Assembly (NCBI GenBank): GCA_030704845.1
Contig: JAUYKZ010000023.1
Span: 14,262 to 78,261, forward strand
DNA: 64,000 nucleotides
DNA from: an archaeon
Lineage (GTDB): Archaea; Nanobdellota; Nanobdellia; Woesearchaeales; GW2011-AR9
Direction of reading: 5' to 3'
Shown here: in pieces, positions 6,506-51,413 of the stretch
How positions within the stretch are numbered: position 1 is the stretch's first letter
How the letters are laid out: each line of letters opens with the position of its first letter
Notes under the pieces: model-generated
Database searches by the model: none
What the model was told of the DNA's origin: nothing
Seen by the model: only the letters and a program-made list of their open reading frames with translations
Program-made: the position numbers and the translations under genes

Positions 6506-7018
6506 ATGGAAATATTAGAAGAAATGCTTAGAACTTTTCTTATAGGAAAAGGTGATTTAGCAGGATATTTGCCATTATCTTATATTGAAGAAGAAAACAA
6601 TTCACTGTTTAGAGAATTGGAAGAAAATCCGGGATTTAATAATTGGGCTTTGGAAGAAGTTAAAGCAGTATACAATTTAATAATTCCTTTTGTTAAAAAA
6701 GAAGAAGAAGTGTTTATAAAAATTCATTCTCTTGCTATGAAATCTGGAATTGAAATAGCTTTGACTGATGAAGCATACTGCGCTGCTGTACGTGAAACAT
6801 TTCTAACAAGAGAAGAATTCGTTAATCATAGAATTGGCATGCTTGATTTATCAAATAATCTTATAACTGAACTTTATGAGGCATGTAGAAATGCTGGTCC
6901 TTTCGGTGATGTTTTAGCGGAGATTTATCATTCAATTATTGAACAAAGCCCCGGTGTTAATATTGATGAACATCTTCCTAAAATAGACAGTATTGCAGAC
7001 AGAATCTATGGTAAGTAG
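6506..7018 (+). CDS. hypothetical protein
   Basis: Long ORF with coding-like composition. No recognisable motif. Confidence 0.3.
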   Translation: MEILEEMLRTFLIGKGDLAGYLPLSYIEEENNSLFRELEENPGFNNWALEEVKAVYNLIIPFVKKEEEVFIKIHSLAMKSGIEIALTDEAYCAAVRETFLTREEFVNHRIGMLDLSNNLITELYEACRNAGPFGDVLAEIYHSIIEQSPGVNIDEHLPKIDSIADRIYGK

Positions 7019-7089
7019 AATTAATAATTGTTCTGAGTAACTAGGTGTAACTAATCTTTATATAATCTGTTTTATATTTTAGATTTAAC

Positions 7090-11642: not shown

Positions 11643-12440
11643 CTAACTTTTTTTGATAACGTAAAATATCTCATTTGTAAACTCTATAATCTGATGAACA
11701 TACCCTTTTCTTTCACATAACCATTCGACCCAGTTCCTTCTTGGGGCAGTCATTTTTTTCCCGCTCATGGTTCTGGTAGCAAAACTCATTATCATATATT
11801 TAGCTGGAATTTTTTCTAGAAGATTCTCAGTAATTTTATGTCCTTTACCCCTATCAAGCACATCAGTCATTTTTAATAAGAAACAAACATCGACCTTAGG
11901 CAGAATATCATTAACAATATCTTTAACTTCAGCTCTACCTTTGAAAGAACTATTTTTCTTTTCAAGGATCTTAAAATATTTTTGAATAAATTCGATTTCT
12001 TCAGAACTAATATCATAAGCATGATATTCTAGTTCTTTAAGTTTCATGAATAGGTATGAAAACGGATTTAATCCACATCCCAGATCAAGAATGGTTTTCG
12101 GTTTACCAGTTATCGTAAAGATTTTCTGATATAAATCTTCATAAATTAATAATCGTTCTTTAGTTGATGAATGAGTGGTAAGAATTTCTTTTATTCTACC
12201 TTCACTTAGAAGCTGTTCCCGTTCTTTTTTGTTTTCATCACGGAACAATCCATAAACTCTTCTTAAGATAGTTCTAATGTCTTTGATAATAATTCTATAA
12301 TCTTTAGATTTGACATTTAATTTGGTAAGGTCAATTCTTGGATGCTGTTTAAGATATTTTTCTAACTCTGTTTTAACGAACTGATCGCTGATTGATGAGA
12401 GTTCTTTCTTTTTCTTAATTTCTTGGATGAATTCTTCCAT
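11643..12440 (-). CDS. class I SAM-dependent methyltransferase (tentatively 16S rRNA m7G1405 Rmt/ArmA-like family)
   Basis: ILDLGCGLNPFSY SAM-binding motif. The preceding HSSTKERL...LYQKIF segment recalls the FmrO/Rmt family. That assignment is a guess. Confidence 0.45.
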   Translation of the reverse strand: MEEFIQEIKKKKELSSISDQFVKTELEKYLKQHPRIDLTKLNVKSKDYRIIIKDIRTILRRVYGLFRDENKKEREQLLSEGRIKEILTTHSSTKERLLIYEDLYQKIFTITGKPKTILDLGCGLNPFSYLFMKLKELEYHAYDISSEEIEFIQKYFKILEKKNSSFKGRAEVKDIVNDILPKVDVCFLLKMTDVLDRGKGHKITENLLEKIPAKYMIMSFATRTMSGKKMTAPRRNWVEWLCERKGYVHQIIEFTNEIFYVIKKS

Positions 12441-12477: not shown

Positions 12478-12618
12478 GGGTCTCTTGGCTAATATGAAAC
12501 CCTCTTTATCTTTTGTATTAGCGCCCTGTCGGAGACGAGGCGGGTACTCGTAAGAGTACGATATCCGCCGTGCTCTAATACAAAGATTATTGAGGGTTTC
12601 ATATTAGCCGGGTCTCTT
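12478..12618. mobile_element. MITE-like element: 18-bp perfect terminal inverted repeats, 9-bp flanking direct repeats, GC-rich hairpin core
   Basis: The flanks both read gggtctctt (12478-12486 and 12610-12618). The TIRs are ggctaatatgaaaccctc (12487-12504) and gagggtttcatattagcc (12592-12609). The interior forms nested stems, including gtactc-gtaa-gagtac with a GNRA-type loop. Confidence 0.5.
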
Positions 12619-12996
12619 ATTCATTGATAAAGCAATTAAATAAATTAAGCAAAGCTTCTCTTCAACGAATCTCTAGCACATTGGAAAGCCGAGGTTAAAT
12701 ATCCGAAATCAGATGTTCGTTACACAAAAGCAGGATTTGAACCATTAACAGAGACCATAATCAGAAATGATAAAATCGGCATTATCATTTGGAGTGATAA
12801 ACCTCTTGGTATTATCATCCACCAAAAAGAAGCTGCTGAATCTTATGATCAATTTTTTAAAATAATGTGGAGTACTGCAATTCCTTAGATTATTCAAGTA
12901 ATATTGTTAAACTTTGTTTAGGATATATTAAACAATTCGTTTCTACTAAATTCAATTTCCGCTACTTTTTTAAACAATAACATAATCTAAGTATTT

Positions 12997-13635
12997 ATGG
13001 GTTGGTTTCATAAATTATCACATTTTCTTTGGAAGGATACTTCTATTTGGAGTTGGATTGCCAATATCTTAATTGCTTTCCTTGTAATTCGTTTTTTATT
13101 CTACCCAGTTCTAGGAGTTCTCCTTGGTACTAGTTTCCCTGTTGTAGCAGTAGTTAGTGAAAGTATGGAACACGGATTACATAACGATGTTCTTTGTGGA
13201 CAATCATTTGATACGTTTCATGAATCATTTGATAATTATTGGGGTATTTGCGGTTCATGGTATGAACAGATTGGAATAACAATGGAACAGTTTAAACAAT
13301 TTCCATTTAAGAATGGGTTCAATAAAGGCGATGTAATAGTTTTATGGAGAGCAAATAGAAATAATCTTGAGGTCGGCGATATTTTAGTTTTCCAAGCAAA
13401 TAAAAATCAACCGATTATCCACCGGATGGTTGCTGTTACTGAAAAAGATGGAAATCTCTTTTATCAGACGAAAGGCGATCATAACGCTAGAAGTATTGAA
13501 TCTGGGTTAGATGAGACGCATATTAGTGAAGATCGTGTTTATGGGCAAGCTTTATTTAGGATACCTTATCTTGGATGGGTTAAAATTTTAGTTGTAGAAC
13601 TTCTTAAACCGTTTGGGATAGTTATTGAGCGGTGA
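12997..13635 (+). CDS. signal peptidase I, archaeal/ER Sec11 type
   Basis: N-terminal TM segment, the SESMEH catalytic-serine box and a GDHN box. Confidence 0.65.
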   Translation: MGWFHKLSHFLWKDTSIWSWIANILIAFLVIRFLFYPVLGVLLGTSFPVVAVVSESMEHGLHNDVLCGQSFDTFHESFDNYWGICGSWYEQIGITMEQFKQFPFKNGFNKGDVIVLWRANRNNLEVGDILVFQANKNQPIIHRMVAVTEKDGNLFYQTKGDHNARSIESGLDETHISEDRVYGQALFRIPYLGWVKILVVELLKPFGIVIER

Positions 13636-41212: not shown

Positions 41213-41266
41213 AACTTAAAATTAAGATAATCACTTTATAAAAGTTTCTTAGATGTTTTAGAAAAA

Positions 41267-41337
41267 GCCCTCGGCGAGAATTGAACTCGCGACCTTGTCC
41301 TTACCAAGGACACGCTCTACCACTGAGCCACGAGGGC
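41267..41337 (-). tRNA. tRNA-Thr (GGU)
   Basis: Minus strand reads gccctcgtggctcagtggtagagcgtgtccttggtaaggacaaggtcgcgagttcaattctcgccgagggc. Cloverleaf with anticodon loop ttGGTaa. No encoded CCA. Confidence 0.8.
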
Positions 41338-41462: not shown

Positions 41463-41534
41463 TAGGATGCCAAAAATGTCTTCCTAAATGGTTGTATTTT
41501 AAACACAGCGACATTTTTGTGCATAAAAAAGAGT

Positions 41535-41668
41535 GTCGGGGAAGGGATTCGAACCCTCGAACCCACTAAGAGACAGGATATCTTCCAAGGAAGCCAATTA
41601 TCAATAATTGGTGCCTCATCCATGTGGACTTAAGTCCTGCGCATTTGACCGGACTTTGCTACCCCGAC
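41535..41668 (-). tRNA. tRNA-Leu (UAA) with intron of about 49 nt at position 37/38
   Basis: Minus strand reads gtcggggtagcaaag...gcaggacttaag[intron tccacatggatgaggcaccaattattgataattggcttccttggaagat]atcctg-long variable arm-gagggttcgaatcccttccccgac. The acceptor and T arm are canonical. After intron removal the anticodon stem is cagga/tcctg with loop cTTAAga. The intron carries its own ccaattat/ataattgg hairpin. Confidence 0.55.
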
Positions 41669-51266: not shown

Positions 51267-51413
51267 AACTATTCGGCGCTGTCCAGAAAGTCATAAAAAT
51301 GTATACTGGGGCACGGCGCTCATTACGAGCTTCACTTCGTTTGCTCGTGCGCCTCGACTACGTCAGGGCGCCAGTATACAAAAAAGAGACTTTCTGGACA
51401 GCGCCAACTATTC
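51267..51413. mobile_element. second MITE-like element: 18-bp perfect TIRs, 8-bp flanking direct repeats, GC-rich core
   Basis: The flanks both read aactattc (51267-51274 and 51406-51413). The TIRs are ggcgctgtccagaaagtc (51275-51292) and gactttctggacagcgcc (51388-51405). The interior is GC-rich with nested stems. Confidence 0.5.

Follow-up and report, generated by a model that had tools for sequence, protein, structure and literature searches.

A miniature inverted-repeat element in a woesearchaeal genome, the family sharing its termini and a probable IS5-family partner

Between the divergent genes for an FmrO-type rRNA methyltransferase and a signal peptidase, the 64-kb stretch of archaeal DNA analysed here (the window) holds a short non-coding block with perfect inverted ends, and the question raised by this locus is whether such a block is mobile DNA, in which case one may ask what moved it and what it carries, or a structured RNA that belongs where it stands. 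A first-pass annotation had called it a miniature inverted-repeat transposable element (MITE). We find it very probable that positions 12487-12609 are a MITE moved by a DDE transposase supplied in trans, that of an IS5-family IS of ~1020 bp that is widespread in Woesearchaeota/Nanoarchaeota-type archaea. The original call is borne out by other copies with 9-bp target-site duplications (TSDs) of their own, by an IS5-family partner and by relatives that are without the insertion.

Anatomy of the element and history of its locus

The MITE measures 123 bp and contains no ORF of 40 or more amino acids. Perfect terminal inverted repeats (TIRs), a 9-bp TSD and a non-coding core, as claimed at first pass, were all read in the sequence, and their positions are collected in Table 1. 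The 9-mer GGGTCTCTT occurs twice across the 64-kb window, both times flanking the MITE (0.40 occurrences expected; 8 of 100 shuffles reach two), and base composition gives a probability of about 1e-5 for identity at nine of nine positions in two fixed flanks. The 18-mer of the TIR has no further match in the 64-kb window with up to three mismatches (0.09 expected; none of 100 shuffles reaches two). Inward of the TIRs there is imperfect pairing, giving arms of 38 nt that are 84% complementary.

Table 1. Positions of the MITE, its neighbours and the second MITE (M2) in the window
Feature	Position	Strand	Basis or remark
FmrO-type rRNA methyltransferase gene (left neighbour)	11643-12440	-	
Left TSD copy, GGGTCTCTT	12478-12486		sequence reading and occurrence count
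Extra block of ~475 bp (MITE, one TSD copy and 343-bp segment)	12482-12956		alignment with L262/L264 and L265/L266; boundary ambiguous by 1 nt
Left TIR, GGCTAATATGAAACCCTC	12487-12504	+	sequence reading and mismatch scan; first 17 nt are the termini of the ~1020-bp IS5-family element
Non-coding core, 87 nt, branched hairpin, 45% G+C	12505-12591		folds, Rfam and IS comparison
Right TIR, exact reverse complement of left TIR	12592-12609	-	sequence reading and mismatch scan
Right TSD copy, GGGTCTCTT	12610-12618		sequence reading and occurrence count
Start-less ORF, 79 codons and stop	12649-12888	+	inside the 343-bp segment (12619-12956, with CTCTT at 12482-12486), outside the MITE
Signal peptidase gene (right neighbour)	12997-13635		divergent from the FmrO gene
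M2: TIRs GGCGCTGTCCAGAAAGTC at 51275-51292 and 51388-51405, duplication AACTATTC on each side, core 51293-51387	51267-51413		repeat and core alignment

The core has more G+C than the flanks (~30%), and the region folds strongly. Compared with shuffles, the 181-nt MITE region has a z-score of -9.4 on the plus strand and -7.8 on the minus strand, and the core alone gives -4.7 and -6.1. The first-pass annotation had described a GNRA-capped stem of about 87 bp, a figure that is in fact the length of the core in nucleotides. As for the cap, the plus strand allows a GUAA loop at 12550-12553 with CUC/GAG closing, but the minimum-energy fold of the MITE region prefers the adjacent AGAG loop.

So stable a fold, in a core that stands out by its G+C content from AT-rich surroundings, would also suit a structured ncRNA gene or a cis-regulatory hairpin fixed at the locus, the identity of the flanking 9-mers then being coincidental, and some compensatory changes among three homologous cores (described below) point the same way. 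We consider this scarcely credible. Rfam gave no match at gathering level at the MITE site, and at a permissive threshold the best model there was MIR2630, a plant miRNA hairpin model, with 27 bits against a gathering level of 144; the history of the locus and the other members of the family, to which we now turn, also speak against it.

The intergenic spacer comprises 556 nt in the window compared with 60-80 nt in the corresponding loci L262-L266, L268 and L269. In L262-L264 the FmrO protein is 84% identical and in L265/L266 79%, the signal peptidase is 86% identical and the spacer of ~80 nt reads ..GCTTAAAAATCTGTTGGGTTTCCGCTACTTTTTTAAAC.. / ..CTGTTGGGTTTCCGCTAC... The outgroups L268/L269 have FmrO proteins of 59-61% identity, a signal peptidase of 63% (compared for L269) and spacers of ~60 nt. 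Empty sites in related genomes had been suggested as a check on the MITE call, and the orthologous spacers of four relatives and two outgroups are indeed without the MITE, the adjacent 343-bp segment being likewise absent. An RNA gene fixed at this position is hard to reconcile with that absence. The extra block begins with CTCTT; the MITE follows, then the second TSD copy, and the remaining 338 nucleotides include a start-less ORF. A site empty of the MITE only (GGGTCTCTTATTCATTG) was not found, the relatives lacking the MITE and the adjacent 343-bp segment together; a MITE-free junction would read ..CTGTTGGGTCTCTTATTCATTG...

The composition of the duplicated 9-mer gives an order of events. 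In GGGTCTCTT the letters GGGT belong to the ancestral spacer and CTCTT to the edge of the 343-bp segment, and since the TSD thus straddles the left edge of that segment, the segment entered the short spacer between the FmrO and signal peptidase genes first and the MITE then inserted across its left junction. The TATA-like promoter blocks of both divergent genes are conserved and remain on their own sides, which suggests that the MITE has little effect on its neighbours and that its insertion was probably neutral. TIRs and TSD are perfect, and relatives at ~80-85% protein identity do not have the block; both point to a fairly recent insertion.

It had also been proposed that the MITE disrupted the ORF downstream. 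This ORF is real, but its end had been misplaced at 12897; the frame runs from 12649 to 12885 with the stop codon at 12886-12888, and no in-frame ATG, GTG or TTG is found until near its end. Its homologues, of 57-127 amino acids and at most 90% identical, are found in Woesearchaeota in many unrelated contexts, and intact ones have ~99 amino acids and begin with MLGDAWWVSY. Homology of the fragment to these intact proteins begins at ~12638-12647, which is 20-30 nt past the TSD, and the fragment recurs in L135/L136 with its 5' boundary unchanged, beside unrelated neighbour genes and, as far as the region was examined, free of a MITE. The proposed disruption is contradicted by both observations, and it follows from the common boundary in L135/L136 that the MITE did not truncate the ORF.

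A placement of the MITE within codons of the ORF was also considered, as the sequence with the MITE removed, TGG GTC TCT TAT (WVSY), resembled the beginning MLGDAWWVSY. It was rejected, 175 and 549 of 1000 shuffles being as good upstream of ~12647. Synteny was followed through the homologue loci L132-L141, whose contexts are unrelated to the window and among which no empty site was found. In two of these loci (L132, 2-810; L134, 3576-4300) the ~99-aa homologue directly follows or overlaps an ORF of 141-188 aa on the same strand, an arrangement that could represent a split gene or a two-gene unit, and a 240-aa TrmB-family gene lies near the homologue in L137-L139.

Elements with the same termini and the IS5-family partner

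The first-pass annotation had named further copies and an autonomous partner as what a search for the TIR should reveal, and both were found. Scanning one genome per species for both termini at a distance of 80-110 nt gave ten further elements in MAGs that bear the labels Woesearchaeota, Nanoarchaeota, 'archaeon' and 'Methanosarcinales'. Six of the ten lie on six contigs of one MAG (CAYMIF01), which holds six paired copies and two contig-end termini, and the genome of the window shows one copy in the 64 kb seen. All ten carry on both sides a 9-mer of their own that differs from element to element, as exemplified by TGAAAATCC, AAGTAAACA, CATTGTTTT, GGAATGCTG and TTCTACCAG.

Scanning of metagenomes for a single terminus yielded at least 120 loci. 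When all loci and the window are taken together, at least 43 elements are paired, 30 of them being 122-285 bp and 13 being 997-1023 bp long. The 29 short elements other than the window copy, found in DPANN-type MAGs and in metagenomes, mostly have a site-specific 9-bp TSD; among the 43 paired elements the two TSD copies agree at nine of nine positions in 19 and at eight of nine in five, and all the 9-mers differ. Most unpaired termini (62 of 91) lie no more than 300 nt from the end of a contig, which is expected because repeats break assemblies, and Logan contig L001, an independent assembly of the window locus, stops 30 nt inside the MITE.

The terminus of the family reads GGCTAATATGAAA(C/T)CCT over 17-18 nt. 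Conservation across elements falls off at TIR position 18-19, and that of positions 1-17 is partly ascertained, these having been fixed in the scan pattern. Viral contigs were scanned with this terminus (TIR1) and with that of the second MITE described below (TIR2), and gave single unpaired matches only and no elements.

The family is held together by its ends, the cores being very diverse in sequence. Without the TIRs, 14 of 26 distinct cores have a fold z-score below -3 and several are near 0, so that a structured core is a common but not a defining property; a universally structured core was rejected, the other 12 folding not significantly better than shuffles. These data bear directly on the RNA gene weighed above, for which neither termini that bound dozens of elements with unrelated cores and 9-bp duplications of their own nor so many unremarkable folds would be expected. 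A single-copy element conserved in position in all relatives, named at first pass as the finding that would instead suggest an ncRNA, is excluded by these copies together with the relatives without the block.

Two minor observations on the family may be added. The TSDs of 24 members have a G+C content of 37% and show a weak tendency to G/C outside and A/T at the centre, in what is a small sample. In MAG CAYMIF01 the 7-kb contig L009 ends on both sides (1-67 and 7010-7071) in TIR variants with three mismatches, GGCTATTATGAGATCCT and GGCTATAATGAAATCCT, which suggests that further, diverged copies exist in that MAG.

The 13 long elements, of ~1020 bp, are bounded by the same 17-nt ends as the MITE and are the source of the proposed transposase. 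Every one of them has a single intact ORF of 294-324 codons (~305 aa) whose stop codon lies within the right TIR, which in the full-length IS reads AGG GTT TCA TAT TAG and encodes the C-terminus RVSY* of the transposase; the alternation of C and T at TIR position 14 is mirrored in the protein by RVSY and RISY as C-termini. Pfam assigns DDE_Tnp_1 (54 and 37 bits, cut-off 23) and DUF772 to the protein, and under the NCBIfam model NF033579, 'IS5 family transposase' (cut-off 140 bits), L055 reaches 155.9 bits and L045, just short of the cut-off, 139.3 bits. The DDE triad and the Y-2-R-3-E-6-K signature are present, and an alignment of 16 sequences, two of them distant annotated archaeal IS5 transposases, shows no variation at D118, D194 (in DRGYD), Y245, R248, E252 and K259. 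The full-length IS in L055 has a perfect 9-bp TSD, GATTAATAG. In most full-length copies on short metagenome contigs the flanking 9-mers do not match, which may be due to chimeric assembly across repeats. The transposase family comprises at least 604 clusters at 90% identity, mostly on contigs of ~1 kb, and some clusters bear the NCBI name 'IS5 family transposase [Candidatus Woesearchaeota archaeon]'.

The 5' leaders of two of these ISs (L055, 3891-4000; L047, 1998-2107) share a conserved TATA-like ATATAAATAG followed by a hairpin, with z-scores of -2.3 and -4.0, whose 3' arm lies over a Shine-Dalgarno-like GAGGUG just before the ATG. Comparable leader hairpins in IS10 and IS50 block translation of read-through transcripts, and by analogy the layout could serve the same purpose here.

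DDE transposases of the IS5/IS903 type bind the ends of their element and make a staggered cut in the target, which is duplicated upon repair. By analogy, the transposase of the partner IS would recognise the 17-18-nt termini common to MITE and IS, cut the target with a 9-nt stagger and join the ends, and repair of the gaps would leave the 9-bp duplication GGGTCTCTT. Mobilisation in trans, by a transposase that is known from other genomes and metagenomes, is what the comparison of sequences suggests. The 87-nt core would travel as a passenger unrelated to the interior of the IS, its strong fold being typical of many, not all, copies in the family.

Origin of the core and a second MITE

Internal deletion of an IS is a common origin of MITEs, and with termini identical to those of the ~1020-bp IS the window MITE might be a simple derivative of this kind, formed when the transposase gene was lost and the two ends came together. 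We think this very unlikely, as similarity between the MITE and all 13 full-length ISs is confined to the terminal 17-20 nt, none of them having anything like the 87-nt core, and as that core is instead homologous to the cores of the element M2 at 51275-51405, with other TIRs, and of L042. A MITE with a foreign core, rather than a plain deletion derivative, is therefore indicated by the comparison.

M2 (Table 1) has perfect 18-nt TIRs that agree with the TIR of the first MITE at seven of 18 positions, and its TSD is 8 bp as opposed to 9 bp. As the TIRs are unrelated and the TSD lengths differ, two different transposases presumably moved the two elements. The 95-nt core of M2 nevertheless aligns end to end with two others, that of the element at L042 81-246 and, in reverse orientation, that of the first MITE. 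In all three the junctions of TIR and core fall at equal positions, blocks including GCACGGC and CAGGGCGC are conserved, and two stems show compensatory changes. Rfam found nothing at M2. A covariance model (R1) of the shared core recovered no extra copy in the window, searched with filters off, or in ~740 kb of related loci (L002-L141), and in a scan of viral contigs with the core motif the 120 loci listed were all due to chance, none being recovered by an nhmmer profile of the core.

End-to-end alignment with equal junctions, between elements whose TIRs and TSDs differ to this extent, and compensatory changes in two stems could be taken to mean that selection maintains the core as an exchangeable structured module, to which TIRs are attached as interchangeable adaptors and which, as a hairpin in DNA or RNA, assists transposition or serves the host. 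We consider such a module unlikely. The case for it is built on three instances, two of them from one genome, and the covariance search of the window and ~740 kb of related loci added none; the arms of a MITE are palindromic as DNA anyway, and template switching in gap repair could make a chimeric MITE without selection. In its broader form, in which the G+C-rich core is an exchangeable module that is either a hairpin passed between MITE families or one kept by selection because it acts in transposition or as a small RNA, the idea is likewise improbable. Template switching while gaps are repaired is one way in which the hairpin core could pass between families, and for three instances a chimera of this origin explains the shared core as well as selection does. 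The sharing of a core by M1, the first MITE, and M2 is the only unusual point of this case, and if upheld for two TIR types it would bear on the birth of MITE families.

Elements of the two TIR types have been found close together in another locus. In L074, at ~880-1060, the end of a TIR1 MITE is 9 nt away from a TIR2-type element that has a different, AT-rich core and a degenerate 8-bp duplication in which six of eight positions match.

Relation to known elements

MITEs in archaea are already known, and the transposase is annotated as IS5 family in public records. A 2024 census of archaeal MITEs ranks a Woesearchaea genome, at 105 MITEs per Mb, among the densest (PMC11602168), which contradicts the first-pass remark that such elements are rarely described in DPANN. 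The MITEs of that census are of the same element kind, from the same host group and mostly intergenic, as is the one described here, but the main text of the census ties no families to transposases (PMC11602168). In the papers searched, the TIR string gave no match, and no description of this IS/MITE family was found.

Short, non-coding elements with TIRs and TSDs, a strong fold and a need for a cognate IS are also represented by SM1-SM4 of Sulfolobus and the Correia elements of Neisseria, for the latter of which effects at the RNA level have been shown. The window MITE shares their layout and strong folding, but SM1-SM4 and the Correia elements belong with other IS families and have other TSD lengths.

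The partner IS resembles the IS903/IS903B type of IS5 elements in its length of ~1 kb, its single DDE ORF with D/D/E and Y-2-R-3-E-6-K, its TIRs starting with GGC and its 9-bp TSD, and it differs from them in having DPANN archaea as hosts. Direct target repeats of 9 bp have been documented for IS903B of the IS5 family (PMC9769513). In a tblastn search of 72,556 plasmids the matches listed from named groups were archaeal or from Roseomonas, all below 60% identity, and enterobacterial IS903 was absent among the matches listed. The nearest annotated plasmid relatives among these matches were ISHla2 and ISHma13 of haloarchaea and an IS5 element on a plasmid of Methanomethylovorans hollandica, with ~30% identity to the partner transposase over 85-92% of its length and alignment of the catalytic residues. 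These elements are distant, however, and have no TIR-encoded ..RVSY* C-terminus; a repeat search at ISHla2 and the M. hollandica element gave no convincing TIR or TSD.

For DPANN the case fully documents an IS-and-MITE pair, from the ends and the length of the duplication to the transposase and a relative free of the insertion, and leaves the current understanding of transposons unchanged. Very small DPANN genomes still host mobile DNA, and here it has moved since a divergence of ~80-85% protein identity. The 17-nt terminus can serve as a marker in repeat annotation and accounts for many contig breaks in Woesearchaeota.

The window also holds a feature unconnected with the MITEs at 41534-41668 on the minus strand, where Rfam recognised a tRNA over 135 nt with 45.7 bits and ARAGORN reported none. 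This is probably an intron-containing archaeal tRNA, and a tRNA-Thr at 41266-41337 adjoins it.
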